Shown here: in pieces, positions 1 through 32,152 of the stretch
Numbering within the stretch: position 1 is the stretch's first letter
Layout of the letters: each line of letters starts with the position of its first letter
Virus record (IMG/VR): IMGVR_UViG_3300015608_002132
Span: 32,001-96,000 of that record
Length of the DNA stretch: 64,000 nucleotides
Strand: one strand, 5' to 3'
From: a virus
Taxonomy: Duplodnaviria; Caudoviricetes
Translations under genes and position numbers: made by a program
The notes under the pieces: generated by a model
Seen by the model: the letters and a program-made list of their open reading frames with translations, nothing else
Database searches by the model: none
Told to the model about the DNA's origin: nothing

Positions 1-363
1 GATGCACATTGGCTTCGCTGTTGCAGCGACGGCGCTGTTGCTATGGTTGGCAAGTACAGCTTGCGCAAGCAAGCGTGCTGCACGTAAGCCAGCCGTACCG
101 TGAATCTCTCGCTTGCACCATCGATGGTTGTATTCGATCTGGCTATGAACCTCGTCGGCATGGGCCTGACAGTACACACCTCCGTCTTCGTCATGCGGGC
201 CTTTGATCTGGTGTGTGGCGCCTTCAGAACAGGTATACTCACCAGTCTCTTCATTATAGTTGTACGTACATTGGAGGAGATAACAGGTCTTGAGCACCTG
301 CTCGGCCAGTGCGCGCGGCTGGATGACGTCGTCAGTTGGTGGTGTTGATGATGATGTTGGCAT
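1..363 (-). CDS. hypothetical protein, runs off the left edge (Cys/His cluster, possible Zn binding)
   Basis: Manual translation from ATG 363 stays open to base 1 (MPTSSSTPPTDD...QCTYN...YTCSEG...VYCQAH). Absent from the ORF track because no stop lies in the window. Confidence 0.6.
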   Translation of the reverse strand, partial: MPTSSSTPPTDDVIQPRALAEQVLKTCYLLQCTYNYNEETGEYTCSEGATHQIKGPHDEDGGVYCQAHADEVHSQIEYNHRWCKREIHGTAGLRAARLLAQAVLANHSNSAVAATAKPMCI

Positions 364-882: not shown

Positions 883-1260
883 TCAACCGCAGCGAACAAC
901 CTGAACTTTTGGCGTACGGCCGTTGTTTGGGTTTGTTACGGCGCCGATGGATATCCAACCATACAAGATGTCAGACGCGTCATCGGTGTTGGCGGTCATG
1001 ACTTTCAACCACATAAGTGGGCATTGGTCGTCGATATCATATTTCACGGCAACATCTAAAACCAGAAACTTTGTGCCAACATTGATCGCTGGCCACGATA
1101 GCCACGACTTTTCGCCCGGAAGGTCATCAAATCCTGGTGCGTCAATATCACTACACGTGAGTTTAATCAGCACTGATAGGTTTAGCGTGCACAGATGCCC
1201 TACGAGCGAAGCCAAGTGAGGCGGCACAACGTCATCGTCGCAATGATTGTCATCGACCAT
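883..1260 (-). CDS. hypothetical protein (small beta-barrel/SH3-like)
   Basis: ORF 883..1308, likely start MVDDNH at 1260; FLVLDV...WLKVMT...GWI pattern. Confidence 0.55.
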   Translation of the reverse strand: MVDDNHCDDDVVPPHLASLVGHLCTLNLSVLIKLTCSDIDAPGFDDLPGEKSWLSWPAINVGTKFLVLDVAVKYDIDDQCPLMWLKVMTANTDDASDILYGWISIGAVTNPNNGRTPKVQVVRCG

Positions 1261-1511
1261 ATGACCACCCAGCCATCTGTAATAACCTCCGCGTACGCTG
1301 GCACCCACCCAATGTCACCAAAGTCCGTTAATACTCTCATACACTCGCAGCCTGCACAGCAGCGAGTTTCCAGCACCAGCACCTTGGCGTTTGCCGCGAC
1401 TGATGGCAACTTACCAGAACTCAGTATGATACTAGCTCTGTCATTCAGAGCATATGTCTGCATGCGCAGCAGCTGCCCGACTTGCTTATGTGTGATTATC
1501 GCTGCTGTCAC
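1200..1511 (-). CDS. hypothetical protein (SH3-like)
   Basis: ORF 1200..1559 trimmed to GTG 1511 because its 5' part overlaps tRNA-Ser; VLVLET...MRVLTDFGDIGWV. Confidence 0.5.
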   Translation of the reverse strand: MTAAIITHKQVGQLLRMQTYALNDRASIILSSGKLPSVAANAKVLVLETRCCAGCECMRVLTDFGDIGWVPAYAEVITDGWVVIWSMTIIATMTLCRLTWLRS

Positions 1512-1532
1512 GTGATCGCTGCTTTGGCTGGG

Positions 1533-1622
1533 CGGAGGCGGCAGGAGTCGAACCTGCATGGCCGGGTCTTAACCGGCCCACTGTTTAGCAAACAGTTACC
1601 TTACCATTCGGAACACGCCTCC
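1533..1622 (-). tRNA. tRNA-Ser(GCT)
   Basis: Acceptor GGAGGCG/CGCCTCC, anticodon arm ACTGT-TTGCTAA-ACAGT, long variable arm, T loop TTCGACT, G73. Confidence 0.93.
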
Positions 1623-1626
1623 GAGG

Positions 1627-1684
1627 CTTCGACCGCAGGACTTGAACCTGCAACGGCGCCGCTCTACCATTGAGCTAGGTCGAA
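1627..1684 (-). ncRNA. tRNA-like RNA lacking the anticodon arm (58 nt)
   Basis: TTCGACC TA GCTC-AATGGTA-GAGC GGCGCCGTT GCAGG-TTCAAGT-CCTGC GGTCGAA G: perfect acceptor, D and T stems, with only 9 nt between D and T arms. Confidence 0.8.
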
Positions 1685-1801
1685 TTGGGTGGTGAGTTCA
1701 TGTTAACGGAACGAGCTCACCGAACTACCGGGAAGAATGACCTTTAGGCGCATCTCCTTCATCGCCCGCTCTTTGTTTACCCTCGGAACGGGACGAGGTT
1801 G

Positions 1802-1872
1802 CTCTGGGACTTGGATTTGAACCAAGATGACCTGAGTCAGAGTCAGGCATCCTACCATTGAATGATCCCAGA
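1802..1872 (-). tRNA. tRNA-Gln(CTG)
   Basis: Acceptor TCTGGGA/TCCCAGA, CCTGA-CTCTGAC-TCAGG, T arm CTTGG-TTCAAAT-CCAAG. Confidence 0.93.
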
Positions 1873-1946
1873 AACAGCGCAGCGGAAGCCGCGCTTAACA
1901 AAATATGTGCTTATGTGGGACAACCACCCCCTTTCACATTATTGTT

Positions 1947-2043
1947 TGGAGGAGAGTGTGAGATTCGAACTCACGGACGAGTGTTTTGCGCCCGCCTTCG
2001 GTTTTCAAAACCGACACCATAAACCTAACTCGGTCAACTCTCC
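1947..2043 (-). tRNA. tRNA-Ser(TGA)
   Basis: GGAGAGT/ACTCTCC, TCGGT-TTTGAAA-ACCGA, long variable arm, encoded CCA. Confidence 0.93.
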
Positions 2044-2099
2044 ATGTGTGCGTTATGGCTTGCTTACTTGACCGACCATACTATCTTCGGCCACGGGTG

Positions 2100-2495
2100 T
2101 CAAGGATAATAATTGTCGAGGTAGTACCGCATCCAAACCTCATATTCTGGCAACCACTGCTCCGGGCAGCCGGTGGCGCAAAACCCATGGGTTGATGCCC
2201 AAACCCACACAAAGGGGTTCCAACACCCACTGTCGTCAAGCAGCCCCATTGCTATCAGTCCATCGACTTCGTCGGCATCAAGATCACAGATATCAATCTG
2301 TCCTGTTGCCAGCTTGGCAATCAGATCACGGTCGACCGGCGACATATAGTCAAGCAACACAGCCAGGATGTGACCATATAGGCGAGCTGTTGTTCGGCAT
2401 GTCCGTGCAACAGAGCCAAGGTATTCCACATCGATTACCCGTTGCTTGAGCAAGTATATGGTAATCCGATCTAGGCAGTAGTTGTTGTCGGCCAT
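2100..2495 (-). CDS. hypothetical protein
   Basis: ORF 2100..2624 trimmed to MADNNY at 2495 because the upstream part is tRNA-Lys. Confidence 0.65.
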   Translation of the reverse strand: MADNNYCLDRITIYLLKQRVIDVEYLGSVARTCRTTARLYGHILAVLLDYMSPVDRDLIAKLATGQIDICDLDADEVDGLIAMGLLDDSGCWNPFVWVWASTHGFCATGCPEQWLPEYEVWMRYYLDNYYP

Positions 2496-2510
2496 GATAT
2501 GTGTTTGTTG

Positions 2511-2583
2511 TGGGTCCGGAGAGAATCGAACTCTCATTTCAGCAGGGTAAGAGCCTGGTGTGATACCATTATACCACGGACCC
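2511..2583 (-). tRNA. tRNA-Lys(CTT)
   Basis: GGGTCCG/CGGACCC, CAGG-CTCTTAC-CCTG, GAGAG-TTCGATT-CTCTC. Confidence 0.88.
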
Positions 2584-2591
2584 CATGGTCT

Positions 2592-2755
2592 GACGCATCT
2601 CCATGCGTCTTTGGTGTTTATCAACTATCTTGCCGGTCAAGAGAGCTATGAACGACCAACTTCACGCCCAGATGACCGGTTACGGTCGACAACACTGAGA
2701 CTGTGGCACTTACGCGCTAGAGTCTCCTGCAACCAGCGTCTCCGTCGGCTGCATC
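2592..2755 (-). ncRNA. candidate structured RNA/leader upstream of tRNA-Lys
   Basis: Four consecutive hairpins directly after a sigma70-type promoter, two capped by GNRA tetraloops (GAGA, GUAA). Confidence 0.5.
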
Positions 2756-4171: not shown

Positions 4172-4200
4172 ACTGTACTTTATGGTTGCGTAAGTGTCAA
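4172..4200 (-). promoter_or_regulatory. sigma70-type promoter for tRNA-Leu
   Basis: TTGACA-N17-TACAGT. Confidence 0.7.
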
Positions 4201-4686: not shown

Positions 4687-4910
4687 TGTTTTGTGCTTCT
4701 CACAAGGCTCCATACCCCTGTTATGATAGCCGCCGCCGAAGCCAATGCCAACGTCGCAACGCCAACAAAGTATATCTCGTTTATCAAGCCATACAGCCAG
4801 AGGTTTGCGCAAGTAATTGCAACCCCGGTCACCACAGCGCCGGTCGCAACCACTAGCGCCACAGCCAGCAAACAGCCTCTAGTAATCCTTGCCATGGCGT
4901 TGTTTTCCAC
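4683..4910 (-). CDS. small two-TM membrane protein
   Basis: Two long hydrophobic segments in 75 aa. Confidence 0.6.
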   Translation of the reverse strand: MENNAMARITRGCLLAVALVVATGAVVTGVAITCANLWLYGLINEIYFVGVATLALASAAAIITGVWSLVRSTKQ

Positions 4911-5598
4911 AAGGAAACGGCATGCGCATGTGTTCGAGCAGTGGTATCAGAGCTCTTGGTGTTGCGACAAGCGTGCATGACACGGTATATGGTGCGCCCG
5001 TAATGTTGAATCTCTCAGCCTGTTCAACACCGAAGTAAGTGCACGAGCAAACCTCCATCCACCCATACGCCTGGGTCATCACTTCGATGTCGGTCTTCTT
5101 GATGTGATATCCTGGGTCGTTTGTTGTGTCAACGTACCTAAGCTGCCCAACGTGTACACCAAGCAGTCCAAACACTTTGGTTGTGTTTGCTAAGCACTCG
5201 TCGAAGCTATATCTCGCTGCATCGTCGCTGGTAGCGAACACGAACTGCTCAATCTTCCGAAACTCAAGAAGACTCTTCCATCCGTCCAGCGTGTCTTCGT
5301 TTCTGAAACAACTGTTGTTTGCAAAATACCGGTATTGCTGTTCTGACGCGTCAAGCCGTGACCCCTCGAACAACTCCAAGATGCCTTGTTCGGCAGAACC
5401 GGCCAAAGCCAAGCTGTCGCTAATCTTGAACGTGTGTTCCCATGTCACGGCCGCTTGGCGCTCGATGGTTGAGCGTTTGACGAGTGAAGGGACCGACAAG
5501 TAAGTCCATCCACGTCCAAACAAGAAGTCTTCGCCGGTGCGTAAGACTCGGCGCTCAAGTTGAGCATATGCCGGGTCTCGTGGTTGAAATGTGGACAT
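4879..5598 (-). CDS. seryl-tRNA synthetase-like catalytic core lacking the N-terminal tRNA-binding arm
   Basis: Class II motifs: VPSLV (motif 1), GSAEQ (TxE loop), CFRNE...EFRKIEQF (motif 2), DIE, EVCSC, ATPRAL (motif 3); only 239 aa. Confidence 0.85.
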   Translation of the reverse strand: MSTFQPRDPAYAQLERRVLRTGEDFLFGRGWTYLSVPSLVKRSTIERQAAVTWEHTFKISDSLALAGSAEQGILELFEGSRLDASEQQYRYFANNSCFRNEDTLDGWKSLLEFRKIEQFVFATSDDAARYSFDECLANTTKVFGLLGVHVGQLRYVDTTNDPGYHIKKTDIEVMTQAYGWMEVCSCTYFGVEQAERFNITGAPYTVSCTLVATPRALIPLLEHMRMPFPCGKQRHGKDY

Positions 5599-11314: not shown

Positions 11315-14300
11315 TTAATACACCCATCCAAACAAACGCCGCGTTTCCATCTCCATCTCGGCGGCCTCTTTTGATACGCCGTATGGCAGTTTCTTGCCAG
11401 CGACTTTTCGGTTTACATCATTGAAGCCGCGGCTCATTCCGGCCAACATTGACATGGCCAGCATTTTGTTGCTCTCTTGCATGTGAAGATAGCCGCCTTG
11501 GGATGCTGATGGCGTGAACATTTGTAGTCCAATGGCTGCGGCCATGATTAAATCATCATGTTTATGTTTTAGTGACTGTCCACGCTTACCAGTCCAGATA
11601 AAAGTTTCCATTTGCTCTACTAGACGCAATGAGTAGAACTTTATCTGTCGGTTCCGAATTACTTGCTCTAGGTTCTCAAGGATCTTCTCGCGATTTTTTT
11701 GAGAAACCGTATAACCAGGATATACCTCGGCCTTCTCTTCCGGTGTCATTCCAAGCATCTTCTCTAGTACCTCTGGGTCGTAATAAAGGTTTGGATACTC
11801 GGAGTTCCTGAGTTGTGTTGCTGTCGCAAGTCCAACAGAGTTCAATTCCGCAACAATGAGTGCGTTGTTATAGCGCCTACCGCACTCCACCATAAAATCA
11901 GCATACTTGTCCGGTGGAATCTTACCCATATACTCCGCTGCAACCTCCGACTCGTTCGTATCGAAGATATGGAATGCCGAGTAGTCGGCCGCATCTCCTC
12001 TTGCCACGTCAGCGGCCAAAACGTACTTGTGATCAGATTGCGGCGTACGCCAGATGTGCATATCGCGTTGAGCCTGTATCTTACCGGCCGGACCTGTAAA
12101 CCCAATAGCTGGGAACGAGAGCTGCCTGACGAAGTCAATGGAGTCTTGCGGGAAGAATGTTGCCGAGCTCCCCTCAAAACCACAGTTTAGTTCCTGTGCA
12201 ATACCTCTAGCGTCGAGAGCGCGGCACTGTTCCTCAAACCACTTGTCATCGCGCTCCGGGTGAACCGTCCAAGGCAGTTTAATTCCGTGGAATCCGTTCT
12301 TGCCAACGCCCTTGCAGTGCTGTCCTACCTTGCCCTGTTCCCATTCGCCGGTCTCTGCGCCTTGCCAAAGTTGATAAAAAAAGTTCTTTCCACTAGGGGT
12401 CTGATGGCCGAGAAACTGCTCGTATATTACCGAGTGGTCCCACTGCGGGTCCGACGGGTCATTTGGGAGTGAAAAATCCATTGTTTCTGACTCCGACTCC
12501 ACGATGGCTTTAATACGCTTCCATACAACATGTGTCGACAGAAGATAATCCGGTACGGTTGTACTTGCCAATTCAGCTAGCCGCTGCAATTCTGCACGAG
12601 TCGGGCTAACGTAACCGTTGGTTATCCGATGAATAGACCAGTTGTACTTCTTAGAAAAAGCAACCGCCGACATTCCAAAAGAGTTGAACGTTTCTCTAAA
12701 CCACACTTGAGCGTATGGCAATGAAACAAAACCATCATTGTTTGATCGTTTAAGCAGAGAAGTTTTTGCCGCGTGAGCCTGTTTGCGCGCAAATCCAAAT
12801 CCAATTTTCTCGAAGAATTTCTTAGCTTCCCAGTGCTCAGCGTGCAGTTGATATGAGTCGTGCCTAAAATAATTCTTCTTAAGATATTTGTTGAGATCAT
12901 TGATCTTACAGCATTGCAATCCGGTTAAGATGCCAAAATTACTCAGAATCGCTCTTGTTTGTTTTGCCAGCTCGGGACTTGATGTACACAAAGAAACGCG
13001 ATGCTTCGATGTAGCAGAGTGTGCCGTGCCATCGCCGTCATACATTCCGCGAACCAGTGCGGCAATCAGCTCTTGTGAGCACTCCAGCAAGCGATCCGGG
13101 ATGCGCTTCTCGTGTGCCTTAAGGCGCAGGTCGAATCCAAGCGACATCATAAACTTTACAAACGATACTGATGAGATGTAATAATGCAAGTTATCATAGG
13201 TTTTAATAGATAATCCATACTTTCTTGATAGATTACCAAGTATCTCAGATAAATCATCGCCACATGTTATTGTAAGCGTCGCACCAACAATTCTACCATC
13301 TTCATGATATTTTACATAGCATGAACCTTCAGCTATATAAAGACCAAAGAAATACATCAAGTCTTCTGTTAATTTCTGTGGTCTGATAAATTTCCGCTTT
13401 TCTTTCGCGGCATACTCGATCACAGGCAGATCGGCCAAGTCATCATTACTGCCCCATACGTCCTGTCCGTAGTATTGCGCGACGTAATGTCGACCTGGAA
13501 TCAAGTCTTTGGACTCGATCCATCTTGGTTTCTCCAGAGGAGTTGTCGTATCGTATGCAAACAGTTTGTGGTTCTGGCTGACCTCGATTGATCCAACAGT
13601 AGTCTCAATGATTCGCGTTGGAACACGACCGTTGTTCCAAACAACGGTGCCGGTTCGCAGCTTGTTCATCCCGCAAACGCTGTATGGAACATCGTGAGTG
13701 TGTGAAGTTTTCTGACTTTGGTTTGCCGCCAGAAACGATCCGATTTTCTTTATTCCACGGCTCGTGTATACCAATGTGTTTGGATTTACACACGAGAATA
13801 TAATAGCTCTGCCACCTGTAGATAATGTGCTGTACAAGCCAAGCCACAGCTCGGAGAGGTTATCAATATGGGCGGCCTCGTCGATAACAAGAAGGCTTAG
13901 AGCCTGGGAACGACCGGCGTCACCAGACGTAGGGATTGCCGTGATCGTTGATCCGTTGTTGAATTTGAGATACTTGACCGACTCGGCTTCTGGGTCGGTG
14001 AGGCCAAGCATTGACAGCATCCAGGCTGGCAGCATCTTAAAGGCGACGCGAATCTTTTGCAGCATCGCCTTGCCCGTCTCCAGCTTTGTGGCCATGAGAA
14101 GGATGTTGGCATCACGCTGAAACATCGCCATCCAAAGGCAATAGGCAGATGTCGTGGTTGACAGGCCAAGCTGCCTGGACTTCAAGACGATGTTCATCTT
14201 GTAGTCGAGGAACGACTCAATACACTCCTCCTGGAACGGGTACAACTCAAACGGCAGACGGCCTTTGGTTGGGTGCTGAATATACAGGTACTTCTTGATG

Positions 14301-14365
14301 AAGTAGATCGGGTTCTCCCCGCACTTAAGGATTTCTTCTAGTTGTTCTTTTTTGTTAAGGGCCAT
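11315..14365 (-). CDS. terL: terminase large subunit (T4 gp17-like) with intein
   Basis: KSRQLGLST Walker A, LLVIDEAAH Walker B, LAADVARG and HDDLIMA nuclease motifs; about 552 aa after splicing. Confidence 0.96.
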   Translation of the reverse strand: MALNKKEQLEEILKCGENPIYFIKKYLYIQHPTKGRLPFELYPFQEECIESFLDYKMNIVLKSRQLGLSTTTSAYCLWMAMFQRDANILLMATKLETGKAMLQKIRVAFKMLPAWMLSMLGLTDPEAESVKYLKFNNGSTITAIPTSGDAGRSQALSLLVIDEAAHIDNLSELWLGLYSTLSTGGRAIIFSCVNPNTLVYTSRGIKKIGSFLAANQSQKTSHTHDVPYSVCGMNKLRTGTVVWNNGRVPTRIIETTVGSIEVSQNHKLFAYDTTTPLEKPRWIESKDLIPGRHYVAQYYGQDVWGSNDDLADLPVIEYAAKEKRKFIRPQKLTEDLMYFFGLYIAEGSCYVKYHEDGRIVGATLTITCGDDLSEILGNLSRKYGLSIKTYDNLHYYISSVSFVKFMMSLGFDLRLKAHEKRIPDRLLECSQELIAALVRGMYDGDGTAHSATSKHRVSLCTSSPELAKQTRAILSNFGILTGLQCCKINDLNKYLKKNYFRHDSYQLHAEHWEAKKFFEKIGFGFARKQAHAAKTSLLKRSNNDGFVSLPYAQVWFRETFNSFGMSAVAFSKKYNWSIHRITNGYVSPTRAELQRLAELASTTVPDYLLSTHVVWKRIKAIVESESETMDFSLPNDPSDPQWDHSVIYEQFLGHQTPSGKNFFYQLWQGAETGEWEQGKVGQHCKGVGKNGFHGIKLPWTVHPERDDKWFEEQCRALDARGIAQELNCGFEGSSATFFPQDSIDFVRQLSFPAIGFTGPAGKIQAQRDMHIWRTPQSDHKYVLAADVARGDAADYSAFHIFDTNESEVAAEYMGKIPPDKYADFMVECGRRYNNALIVAELNSVGLATATQLRNSEYPNLYYDPEVLEKMLGMTPEEKAEVYPGYTVSQKNREKILENLEQVIRNRQIKFYSLRLVEQMETFIWTGKRGQSLKHKHDDLIMAAAIGLQMFTPSASQGGYLHMQESNKMLAMSMLAGMSRGFNDVNRKVAGKKLPYGVSKEAAEMEMETRRLFGWVY
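12401..13792 (-). mobile_element. LAGLIDADG intein (464 aa) ending in His-Gln
   Basis: IIFS|CVNPNT ... GLYIAEG ... RGMYDGDG ... FLGHQ|TPSG; locally more AT-rich. Confidence 0.93.
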
Positions 14366-29513: not shown

Positions 29514-29519
29514 GATTGC

Positions 29520-29525
29520 TAAGTA
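29520..29525. promoter_or_regulatory. TAnnTA late-promoter box shared by divergent genes
   Basis: TAAGTA/TACTTA in the 38-nt gap between 29513(-) and 29552(+). Confidence 0.55.
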
Positions 29526-29551
29526 TCCAAGAGAGAAGCGCTGACAGATAT

Positions 29552-32152
29552 ATGGCTGACCTACCGGACAATCGTGAACGTACGTTTTATCAGAGACTCA
29601 ATCGACTGTTCAGGTCTGGCCCGGCAATTAGGCGAAAGATCAAAGGGCAAGACTACAAGAACTTCTATGACAATCAGGTAGTCCAGAACAACCTTGGTTA
29701 TTATGGGGCCTCCGCGTTCAAGCGCGAAGCGTCGCCATTCTCCACGATGGGCGCGTATGGAATGCTCGATAGAATGAGCAGGTACGCAGAGTTTTCCGAG
29801 ATGGACTCAAGCTGTGCTGAAGTCGCCTCAGCACTGAACGTCTACGCTGACGAGAGCTGTGCGTCGGACGAGAACGGCAAAGTGTTTCATGTCTTCTCAG
29901 AGAACCCACAGGTCCAGAAGGCGCTTGAAGAACTGTTTTTTGATGTTCTGGACATCGAGTTCAATGGCAGGAGGATGATCCGGAACCTTGTCAAGAATGG
30001 TGATTATTTCTGTTACGTTGAGGTTGTTCCTGATTATGGAGTGATCAACGTTGAGCCTCTACCCGTCAATGAAGTTGAACGCGAGGAAGGGTTCGATAAA
30101 CACGACCCTTACGCTGTGAGGTTCAGGCTCATGAGTCGCGGCGGCAAGTACCTTGAGAACTGGCAAATGATGCACATGCGGATCTTGGGCAACGACATGT
30201 TCCTACCGTATGGAATGTCGTTCCTTGAGTCTGCCAGGAGACCATGGAGACAACTATGTCATCTTTCTGGTACACGTGTGTTAATGGCAGATGGCAGCCA
30301 TAAAAATATCGAAGATGTCGTAGCTGGAGATACCGTGTGGACCCACATACCGGATCTGGCTCATTCTATTACAACGACAGTAAAACGTGTGTTGCCAATG
30401 GGAGTTCAGCCGATCGTCGAGGTAAGAGCTGGCAGTCGCTCGATCAAGGTAACACCAAATCACGGCCTGCTTGTCAAGACACCGGAAGGCAAGTTCATAT
30501 ACAAACAGGCAAGCAAGATTGTTGTCGGTTCTGATTGTCTGGTAGCACCGATCATTGATATACCACGACCTTTTATCATGATTGATTGTATGCGCAACTG
30601 CGCCGAATACCCGGTGGTTGATTCTATCACAGAATCAGATCGCGGTCAGACGTGGGATCTTGAGGTCGAACACACCGAACACAACTTTGTTGCGAATGGC
30701 ATTGTGACACACAACACAATGCTCGAAGACTCCATGCTCGTTTATCGTCTTGTAAGGTCGCCGGAGCGTCGTGTGTTCTATGTTGACGTTTCAGCCGTGC
30801 ACCCAAACGATATTCCATCTTATATGGAAGCCGTCAAGGAGTCGATGAGAGGCACATCGATTATCGAGCAACAAACAGGGCGGCAAGACTACCGGTATAA
30901 CCCCATGGCCGTTCTCGATGACTACTTCATCCCGTCCAGGCCCAACGGTCAAACAAAGATCGAGTCACTGGCCGGTGGTCAAAACATAACAGCCACAGAA
31001 GATGTTGAGTATATTCTCCGGAAGTTGATTGCCGCCTTGATGGTACCCAAGGCTTACCTGACATACGACGAGGCCATCAGCTCAAAGTCTACGCTAGCCC
31101 AGGAAGACATCAGGTTCTCAAGAACAATTGCCACCGTGCAGAAGATTGTCGTGGCAGAGCTTAACAAGCTGGCCATGATTCACCTGTTTGCTTTGGGATT
31201 CTCAGGAGAAGACCTGATCAACTTCAACTTGTCGTTCTCAAACCCCTCGACCGTAGCGGTGCAGCAAAAACTGGCGCTGATCTCATCCAAGATTGAAATA
31301 GCTGGTAAGGCATGGGATCTGGGCAAGGAGACAGGAATGGTTTCTATGCCTTACATCCAAAAGGAGATTCTTGGGTTCAGGCCAGAACAGATTGCTCAGA
31401 TAAGAAGCGAAGCTCGACAAGACCAGATTGACATTGCAGAGCTGGCAGCCTTGGCCGAGAACCCGCCGTACGACAATTCACAAGACTCGGCCGTGGACAT
31501 ATTCGACAAGTCAAACTACCAAGTACCGACGTCTCCGTATGCGCCTGATCCAAAGGGACTAGCCGACGTTGAAAGACAGAACCAGGACTCTGAACGTTCC
31601 ATCATGGCCGCAAGAGCCAAAGAACGCGCTGAGCGCGAAGGTAGAACGAGCAAGTCACCGGCAACTTTGGGTGGTAGAACGACTCCTATCAAGTTCAACG
31701 CAACGCCATCACGTAATCGGTCCAAAGAGTTTACTGGGGCACGCGCTTTGGCTATGCCAGACTTCAAGGCAATGCTTGATCCTGCCAACAAGTACAACCG
31801 TGACGTGTTTGGTGGTGTCGGCGGCAAGATCCTTGAAGAGAAGGACATTGCAGCTGGGCTTGGTGTTGCTGTGAGTGATGGTGTTAGCAACGGTGTTATT
31901 CCGTATGGAATAAACAGGTCAATGCAGTCGACTTTCAAGAGAATGCACGAGTCTTTCCGCAGGCAGTCTGATGCGGCAAAAGTCACGGCACTGACCAGCG
32001 AGAAACAAAGGATGGTCCTTGAGCAGTTCGACGTGACCGAAGAAGAAGGTGCCGACAGCGTTGCCGGTGTTGATGTCGACTTGTCGAACGATGATGACTC
32101 ATCGATCGTGTCTGTTGACTTGATCGCCGAATCTATCCTGGGCGATGACTGA
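29552..32152 (+). CDS. portal protein (T4 gp20-like) with mini-intein and long C-terminal tail
   Basis: ALNVYADE, PYGMSFLESARRPWRQL, MLEDSMLVYRLVRSPERRVFYVDV, DDYFIP, EDIRFSRTI. Confidence 0.95.
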   Translation: MADLPDNRERTFYQRLNRLFRSGPAIRRKIKGQDYKNFYDNQVVQNNLGYYGASAFKREASPFSTMGAYGMLDRMSRYAEFSEMDSSCAEVASALNVYADESCASDENGKVFHVFSENPQVQKALEELFFDVLDIEFNGRRMIRNLVKNGDYFCYVEVVPDYGVINVEPLPVNEVEREEGFDKHDPYAVRFRLMSRGGKYLENWQMMHMRILGNDMFLPYGMSFLESARRPWRQLCHLSGTRVLMADGSHKNIEDVVAGDTVWTHIPDLAHSITTTVKRVLPMGVQPIVEVRAGSRSIKVTPNHGLLVKTPEGKFIYKQASKIVVGSDCLVAPIIDIPRPFIMIDCMRNCAEYPVVDSITESDRGQTWDLEVEHTEHNFVANGIVTHNTMLEDSMLVYRLVRSPERRVFYVDVSAVHPNDIPSYMEAVKESMRGTSIIEQQTGRQDYRYNPMAVLDDYFIPSRPNGQTKIESLAGGQNITATEDVEYILRKLIAALMVPKAYLTYDEAISSKSTLAQEDIRFSRTIATVQKIVVAELNKLAMIHLFALGFSGEDLINFNLSFSNPSTVAVQQKLALISSKIEIAGKAWDLGKETGMVSMPYIQKEILGFRPEQIAQIRSEARQDQIDIAELAALAENPPYDNSQDSAVDIFDKSNYQVPTSPYAPDPKGLADVERQNQDSERSIMAARAKERAEREGRTSKSPATLGGRTTPIKFNATPSRNRSKEFTGARALAMPDFKAMLDPANKYNRDVFGGVGGKILEEKDIAAGLGVAVSDGVSNGVIPYGINRSMQSTFKRMHESFRRQSDAAKVTALTSEKQRMVLEQFDVTEEEGADSVAGVDVDLSNDDDSSIVSVDLIAESILGDD
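30257..30715 (+). mobile_element. mini-intein (153 aa, no endonuclease)
   Basis: WRQL|CHLSGTRVLMADG ... VTPNH ... HNFVANGIVTHN|TMLED. Confidence 0.94.

Follow-up and report, generated by a model that had tools for sequence, protein, structure and literature searches.

A 58-nt tRNA-like element without an anticodon arm in a phage tRNA cluster: a probable recent deletion pseudogene of tRNA-Asn(GUU) at a putative HNH homing-endonuclease target locus

Is a well-folded tRNA-like sequence that has no anticodon arm a new kind of RNA, or is it what remains of an ordinary tRNA gene? The question is raised by a 58-nt element in a phage tRNA cluster. The stretch of DNA analyzed here (the window, 64,000 nt) comprises bases 32001-96000 of a 113-kb IMG/VR virus contig, for which CheckV estimated a completeness of 33%. 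Among the products encoded in the window are a T4-type major capsid protein, two sheath-like proteins, a GroEL, an intein-bearing portal protein and a terminase that has a LAGLIDADG insert, and this gene content identifies the source as a T4-like jumbo phage. Related sequence was found mainly in wastewater runs.

The element and its place in the tRNA cluster

The original prediction had described a 58-nt element with perfect acceptor, D and T helices, a 9-nt linker and a position 4 nt before tRNA-Ser(GCT). This description was confirmed by the sequence, by the fold and by other assemblies, and the anticodon-arm-less tRNA shape at 1627-1684 is real. Read on the minus strand from 1684 to 1627, the element is UUCGACC-UA-GCUC-AAUGGUA-GAGC-GGCGCCGUU-GCAGG-UUCAAGU-CCUGC-GGUCGAA-G, and its parts are as follows.

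1627..1684, minus: probable tRNA-Asn(GUU) remnant, 58 nt (sequence, fold, alignment with phage tRNA-Asn genes, identical copies elsewhere)
1684-1678 (5' strand) and 1634-1628 (3' strand), minus: acceptor stem, 7 bp
1677-1676, minus: U8/A9
1675-1661, minus: D arm
1660-1652, minus: linker GGCGCCGUU, 9 nt
1651-1635, minus: T arm
1627, minus: discriminator G

The features of a canonical tRNA that are present are the 7-bp acceptor stem, the D arm and the T arm with its conserved T loop. The 5-bp anticodon stem and 7-nt loop are absent, the D stem being separated from the T stem by no more than the 9-nt linker. Pairing is Watson-Crick at 16 of 16 positions (the element has U1-A72, C3-G70 and G73), and both motifs that form the tRNA elbow, the D-loop GG and the T-loop UUCRA, are in place. 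The minimum free energy structure (-21.5 kcal/mol) consists of exactly the acceptor, D and T helices. By itself this fold energy is unremarkable, because its z-score against shuffled sequences is only -1.9.

The element was not called by ARAGORN, nor was it matched by Rfam RF00005 on the minus strand, even at E<=10. A tmRNA was likewise sought, with a negative ARAGORN search and no Rfam match in the window. A custom scanner was also applied, with its own criteria (acceptor stem 7/7, T stem 5/5, TTCRA loop, D stem, linker <=16 nt). It gave one match in the 113-kb contig, which is this element, and none in 100 shuffled 113-kb contigs on both strands. No further anticodon-less element was found by the scanner in ~0.4 Mb of fetched loci.

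Stacks of acceptor and T arm without a working anticodon are found in the tRNA-like domain of tmRNA, in mascRNA and in the t-elements of plant mitochondria, and such stacks could be acted on by RNase P and by the CCA-adding enzyme. In the tmRNA domain, position 3 pairs as G3-U70, the D stem is missing, and an mRNA-like module with a tag ORF is attached, whereas the element has C3-G70, a complete D arm and nothing attached.

On the minus strand between 4155 and 1529, ARAGORN called tRNA-Leu(CAA), tRNA-Lys(CTT), tRNA-Ser(TGA), tRNA-Gln(CTG) and tRNA-Ser(GCT). The features closest to the element are listed below in the direction of reading.

2075..2103, minus: sigma-70-like promoter, TTGACA-17 nt-TATGGT (a consensus match only), ~30 nt upstream of tRNA-Ser(TGA)
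1947..2043, minus: tRNA-Ser(TGA) (ARAGORN, Rfam), first gene of the Ser-Gln-remnant-Ser run
1801..1872, minus: tRNA-Gln(CTG) (ARAGORN, Rfam), upstream of the element in the same tRNA run
1691..1721, minus: hairpin GGUGAG-C-UCGU, 9-nt loop, AUGA-A-CUCACC (alignment), 6 nt upstream of the element
1529..1623, minus: tRNA-Ser(GCT) (ARAGORN; Rfam 47.2 bits), 4 nt downstream of the element

Between G73 of the element and G1 of tRNA-Ser(GCT) (1622 in the Rfam alignment) lie the 4 nt CCUC. The promoter-like sequence at 2103-2075 is likely to be the start of a Ser-Gln-remnant-Ser transcript. The sole terminator-like match on the minus strand before 1529, at 1848-1830 within tRNA-Gln, was discounted because it is the anticodon arm of that tRNA. 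Given the promoter match and no credible terminator before 1529, the element is probably co-transcribed with its neighbors and freed by the enzymes that process them. Promoter-like sites with a perfect TTGACA -35 and 17-nt spacing occur on the minus strand at 2075-2103, 2763-2791 and 4172-4200, and two of the three precede a tRNA gene, Ser-TGA or Leu-CAA, by 20-30 nt. Because such sites sit ahead of tRNA genes, their presence suggests that the host sigma-70 transcribes the cluster.

The stem of the hairpin at 1691-1721 is kept in L008 and L013, two related contigs introduced below, with a change from G-U to G-C, while the loop varies. The hairpin is not an intrinsic terminator, as it has no U-tract. 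Within the tRNA precursor it may act as a signal for processing or for the binding of a protein. It was also considered as a displaced anticodon arm (loop CCGUUAA). This was rejected: the three lineages read GUU, GUC and GCC while keeping the stem.

Kinship with tRNA-Asn and the HNH insert of sister lineages

Which tRNA gene does the element come from? From U1-A72 and G73 the original prediction had guessed an Asn or Gln type, and alignment with phage tRNA-Asn genes settled this in favor of Asn. Both halves of the element align with these genes, with one gap of 14 columns. The element shares U1-A72, G73, the D arm UAGCUCAAUGGUAGAGC and the GUU end of the variable loop with the tRNA-Asn genes of Pseudomonas phage vB_Pae_Kat (ON361135.1, 22033-22108) and of the IMG/VR contigs L002 and L006, and its T arm is also identical to that of L002 and L006. 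Compared with an intact tRNA-Asn, it is 14 nt shorter, has neither the anticodon loop nor the 3' strand of the anticodon stem, and is negative with ARAGORN and RF00005. In our reading, the linker GGCGCCGUU consists of G26, positions 27-31 (GCGCC) and positions 46-48 (GUU). The 14 missing nucleotides would then be positions 32-45, that is, the anticodon loop, the 3' anticodon-stem strand and two bases of the variable loop.

The same site is occupied by something else in relatives of the phage. A 620-bp insert with an HNH endonuclease gene was found in three contigs from two sister lineages, L008/L030 and L013. L008 was found via the neighboring SerRS-like protein; it is 95% identical over that gene and has the same order of tRNAs. 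L030 is a JGI contig of the L008 lineage, and L013 represents a further lineage that is ~78% identical to the window. In all three, homology to the window runs up to G26 and resumes at GTT and the T arm, with the 620 bp in between.

1652..1660, minus: deletion junction (blastn homology break at window 1660/1654 against L008, L030 and L013)

The open reading frame of the insert encodes 184 aa with the motif CHNCHxEVH and matches PHROG 35854, an HNH endonuclease family (E 1.5e-35). This reading frame takes up all of the insert except 58 + 7 nt.

After the insert, the HNH lineages continue with GTTAA-CGTGC-GGGTT and then the T arm. This stretch corresponds to tRNA-Asn positions 34-48, and its spacing is that expected for GUU as the anticodon, followed by positions 37-38, by the 3' strand of the stem and by a variable loop of 5 nt. 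Among isolate phages, its best long BLAST matches were annotated tRNA-Asn genes of Pakpunavirus phages. GCGCC of the window can be paired with CGTGC of the HNH lineages at four of five positions, 31-39 being C-C. As a thought experiment, a composite was made of window positions 1-31, two filler bases and L008 positions 34-73, and it was called by ARAGORN as tRNA-Asn(gtt). The window thus has no positions 32-45, whereas the HNH lineages have no positions 27-33, which are replaced by the insert, and keep 34-73. These reciprocal losses argue that the two alleles are complementary remnants of one tRNA-Asn gene. From them we infer the ancestral gene, since no recovered relative carries an intact tRNA-Asn at this locus. 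The deletion in the window (32-45) spans the 3' insertion junction (33/34). Its exact path cannot be derived, because a simple slip between GUU/GUU direct repeats predicts a linker of 11 nt and the observed linker has 9.

How mobile is the insert? Over the block formed by the 5' half, the insert and the 3' half, L008 and L013 are identical at 686 of 687 positions (99.9%), against 763 of 844 (90%) in the sequence upstream. This difference argues that the insert moved horizontally in recent time, and the pattern is the one left by a homing-endonuclease gene that has been mobile recently and has co-converted its flanks. Near-identity of the block across diverged backgrounds is as expected for homing with co-conversion of flanks. 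A comparable case is SegB of T4, a homing endonuclease that resides in a tRNA cluster and recognizes the DNA of a tRNA gene (PMC2330249). In both, a nuclease gene in the tRNA cluster of a T4-like phage is near-identical across diverged backgrounds. SegB differs in that it is of the GIY-YIG type and lies between tRNA genes, whereas the enzyme described here is predicted to be of the HNH type and its gene lies inside the anticodon arm of a tRNA gene, destroying the tRNA.

Group I introns are known from bacterial tRNA-Leu, fMet, Arg and Ile genes (reviewed in PMC3984707). The sister alleles resemble these in that a homing endonuclease accompanies an insertion into the anticodon arm. They differ in the tiny part of the insert outside the reading frame and in the lack of any RF00028 match in L008 5000-6500 at E<=10. 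A group I intron in the sister alleles was rejected on this negative Rfam result and on ARAGORN in intron mode, whose sole solution was a forced tRNA(tta) with 15 nt in the variable loop. Splicing could not restore the tRNA in any case, because positions 27-33 are missing in the HNH lineages.

The phage group is heavily colonized by selfish nucleases, in the form of HNH genes, a LAGLIDADG domain and an intein. In the window, the large terminase gene with the LAGLIDADG domain was located at 11315-14365 on the minus strand, and the portal gene with the intein (Hint and splicing domains) at 29516-32152 on the plus strand. A paralogue of the HNH protein (45% identity over the HNH domain) is encoded in the other tRNA cluster of the same contig, 30 kb before the window (locus L034, cluster 900-1750), together with altered tRNA genes.

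G000:C1 985-1464: HNH paralogue
G000:C1 1455-1745: tRNA gene directly after the paralogue, interrupted by 214 nt of group-I-like sequence (29 bits with RF00028, which is under the gathering score; anticodon UUA according to ARAGORN)
G000:C1 925-960: duplicated 5' tRNA fragment

Two further genes of L034 were noted, an 89-nt tRNA-like gene with a 26-nt anticodon region (G000:C1 1772-1860; Rfam 29.0 bits) and a tRNA called by ARAGORN with a 4-base anticodon, acaa (G000:C1 2454-2527). Among isolates, the closest homologues of the HNH protein belong to the Sinorhizobium phages phiM7, phiM12 and phiM19, at 40% identity and within a tRNA cluster. In phiM7 (L033, NC_041929.1, 92505-92627), an annotated 123-nt tRNA-Thr adjoins the HNH homologue and has ~46-50 extra nt in its anticodon loop. 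This segment is too short for a group I intron and may be an endonuclease-associated lesion or a new type of intron.

Occurrence, age and exchange of the short allele

The same 58 nt were found, letter for letter, in the independent assemblies L014 (ENA) and L016 and L017 (Logan), and the junction is bridged by contigs from the runs X7, X11 and X15 of other studies. Run X14 was left out of the bridging count, as its contigs reach the junction only with their ends (<31 nt on one side). With identical sequence in independent assemblies and contigs that bridge the junction, an assembly artifact was ruled out. The short allele is the commoner form and occurs in wastewater and freshwater runs of several studies from 2018 to 2025. 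One wastewater sequencing run contained both forms, the HNH allele (L013) and the short allele (L017). X15 is a run of an RNA library, and its contig covers 1543-1713, across the element. This contig attests presence in an RNA library, not maturation, and its source could be DNA or unprocessed precursor.

The short form is known from one narrow clade only. It is invariant in all copies seen, in surroundings whose sampled local divergence is at most 3%, and it has no compensatory changes. An allele that is identical wherever it is seen does not look like one that has been maintained independently for long. When the element or its 3' half was searched as an exact or gapped DNA pattern, only unrelated normal tRNAs were retrieved from IMG/VR and the JGI metagenomes, collections from which near relatives may be missing. 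Searches for related loci with the SerRS core (see below), the 141-aa neighbor and an alignment of the 160-aa neighbor found no loci. Among isolate phages, the 58 nt matched no more than parts of tRNAs in a BLAST search; one of these matches, 23 nt of the T arm shared with a pseudo-tRNA in T5-like Klebsiella phages, was judged unrelated.

The age of the lesion can be approached through the identity of the window to L008, which differs between parts of the locus as follows.

Two halves of the element: 51/53
Real tRNAs nearby: 84-99%
Adjacent spacer: 80-87%
Neighboring ORF: 78%

The halves differ from the HNH lineages at two positions, by an A-to-G change at position 5, which makes a G-U pair, and by another at position 57 in the T loop; both are compatible with the structure. 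Halves that are this similar beside a far more divergent spacer and ORF argue that the gene was under tRNA-like constraint until recently. Such recent constraint would fit two young lesions and is also compatible with selection on a short RNA.

A mosaic of divergence was seen between window 1200-2600 and the X11 contig, in which 1231-1502 has 23 differences, 1764-1989 has one and 1990-2192 has 14, while 1503-1763 is free of them. All 38 of the 38 differences thus lie outside 1503-1763, and that tract, which contains the element, is 100% identical. The neighboring 160-aa protein of the X11 lineage (P0098) is 79% identical by BLASTP and 83% in a MAFFT alignment. More divergent lineages are represented by P0101 and P0102, versions of this protein with 64% and 58% identity that are encoded on Logan contigs of 19 and 35 kb. 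An identical tract beside a diverged protein indicates that the locus lies in a recently exchanged tract, and the segment with tRNA-Gln, the remnant and tRNA-Ser(GCT) looks as if it has recently been swapped between lineages. The 100% identity of 1503-1763 could reflect selection instead of hitch-hiking.

Origin of the short allele and fate of its RNA

What, then, is the element? We consider it probable that a phage tRNA-Asn(GUU) gene recently became a pseudogene here, through an internal deletion of 14 nt at the target locus of an HNH homing endonuclease. Of the possibilities named in the original prediction, a recent deletion pseudogene is the one that has held up: the halves match tRNA-Asn, the sister lineages keep GUU and the 3' stem strand beside the HNH gene, and the short form is confined to a narrow clade. 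The homing endonuclease, which that prediction did not anticipate, is the key to the locus. The proposed course of events begins with a tRNA-Asn(GUU) gene from which the anticodon loop, the 3' stem strand and two variable-loop bases would have been lost. The locus would be one that a mobile HNH homing-endonuclease gene targets, and in the sister lineages this gene sits at exactly that point. As the short allele is without the segment where the endonuclease gene sits, it may be a repair scar or an escape allele after attack by the endonuclease, or an independent deletion. Selection may possibly have acted on it at the level of DNA, since an allele without the putative nuclease site would escape the endonuclease. 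Fragments and pseudogenes of tRNA genes left by mobile elements have been described in prokaryotes (PMC9897764). The element is like these in being a partial, non-canonical tRNA gene tied to a mobile genetic element, and unlike them in being an internal deletion that keeps both ends, which is why it still folds like the top half of a tRNA.

The remnant would be transcribed with its neighbors from 2103-2075, and RNase P and 3' trimming would release an RNA of ~58-62 nt, the RNase P cut at the 5' end of tRNA-Ser(GCT) setting its 3' end. The released RNA may receive CCA. It cannot decode, because it has no anticodon. Recognition by AsnRS depends on the anticodon, and for this reason the RNA should not be charged or should at best be a very poor substrate. 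It is most likely an inert by-product, and the element most likely an ordinary casualty of mobile-element traffic rather than a new kind of RNA. Against the deletion reading, the 16 perfect pairs and the structure-compatible nature of both differences fit ongoing selection on the RNA as well.

A functional non-decoding RNA under selection, processed by RNase P and CCA-tailed, could serve as a decoy for host factors that bind tRNA, as an aid to the processing of tRNA-Ser or as an amino-acid carrier. The intact stems and elbow motifs speak for such a role, as do the position within what appears to be a transcription unit of tRNAs, the contig across the element from the RNA library of X15, and the prevalence of the short allele in an identical tract common to a more diverged lineage. 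The halves are also conserved between lineages like real tRNAs, but a recently inactivated tRNA explains this equally well, and the X15 contig could be DNA or unprocessed precursor. The short form occurs among near-identical sequences only and shows no covariation, and in close relatives the element is split by the 620-bp nuclease gene with no detectable intron, so that it is dispensable there. Neither 10 distant related records nor ~0.4 Mb of loci yielded a second example. The suggestion of a functional carrier or decoy RNA in the original prediction therefore found no support, given the lack of compensatory changes and the split element of the relatives, and we regard this reading as unlikely.

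Could the short allele be older than the HNH insertion? It would then be an empty homing site, an old pseudogene or neutral spacer, and the Asn anticodon piece of the sister lineages would be flank brought in from the donor. Since flanking sequence of the donor is copied during homing, what flanks the insert in L008 and L013 need not show the prior state of the recipient, and the whole block including both halves is indeed 99.9% identical between the two. An old pseudogene should decay, however, and the halves differ from the HNH-lineage copy at just 2 of 53 positions, whereas the adjacent spacer differs by 13-20%. Moreover, the GCGCC of the window (5 nt) was not seen flanking the insert in L008, as a simple insertion would need. 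An older short allele is accordingly given a low probability.

There is also a slim chance that the RNA was retained after the endonuclease target had been lost, as a matured, CCA-tailed top-half tRNA that titrates a host factor which binds or senses tRNA, or that is an acceptor-end substrate for a phage enzyme. If true, this would explain the 16 perfect pairs, the prevalence of the short allele and the recently exchanged, 100%-identical tract.

A SerRS-like enzyme is encoded nearby.

4879-5598, minus: SerRS catalytic-core paralogue, 239 aa (Pfam tRNA-synt_2b), without the N-terminal tRNA-binding arm

The protein matches residues 168-397 of the T. thermophilus SerRS, the catalytic domain only. 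Its family, with 92 homologues of ~225 aa, is widespread in jumbo phages. Many of these homologues come from contigs of 100-485 kb, and Bacillus phage vB_BpuM-BpSp has one. The original prediction had proposed the element as a substrate of this arm-less paralogue, and had called for a covariance-model search of related genomes for the same deletion with compensatory stem changes. A covariance model of the element was run on its own contig and on 10 distant jumbo-phage records with a SerRS-core gene. It matched normal-length tRNAs and one weak, uninspected 43-nt segment (E 0.04, 18 bits). With the model and the scanner together, no convincing second anticodon-less element was found in the 10 SerRS-core records and the 10-kb flanks of 11 loci. 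G73 is a feature of tRNA-Ser, one that the element shares. That the element is a dedicated substrate charged through its acceptor end alone is nevertheless very improbable: although the enzyme is only a catalytic domain encoded 3.2 kb upstream on the same strand, enzyme and element do not co-occur in this common family, L008 has an enzyme 97% identical to this one and an element interrupted by the HNH gene, and the element derives from tRNA-Asn, not tRNA-Ser.

To return to the probable deletion pseudogene, the locus presents two natural alleles of one phage tRNA gene, one with a recently mobile HNH gene and one with a 14-nt deletion over the insertion point. This pair is a testable case of how pressure from homing endonucleases shapes the tRNA repertoires of phages. 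It is also a caution that a tRNA-like remnant in a phage tRNA cluster, however well it folds, is best compared with sister genomes before any function is assigned to it.
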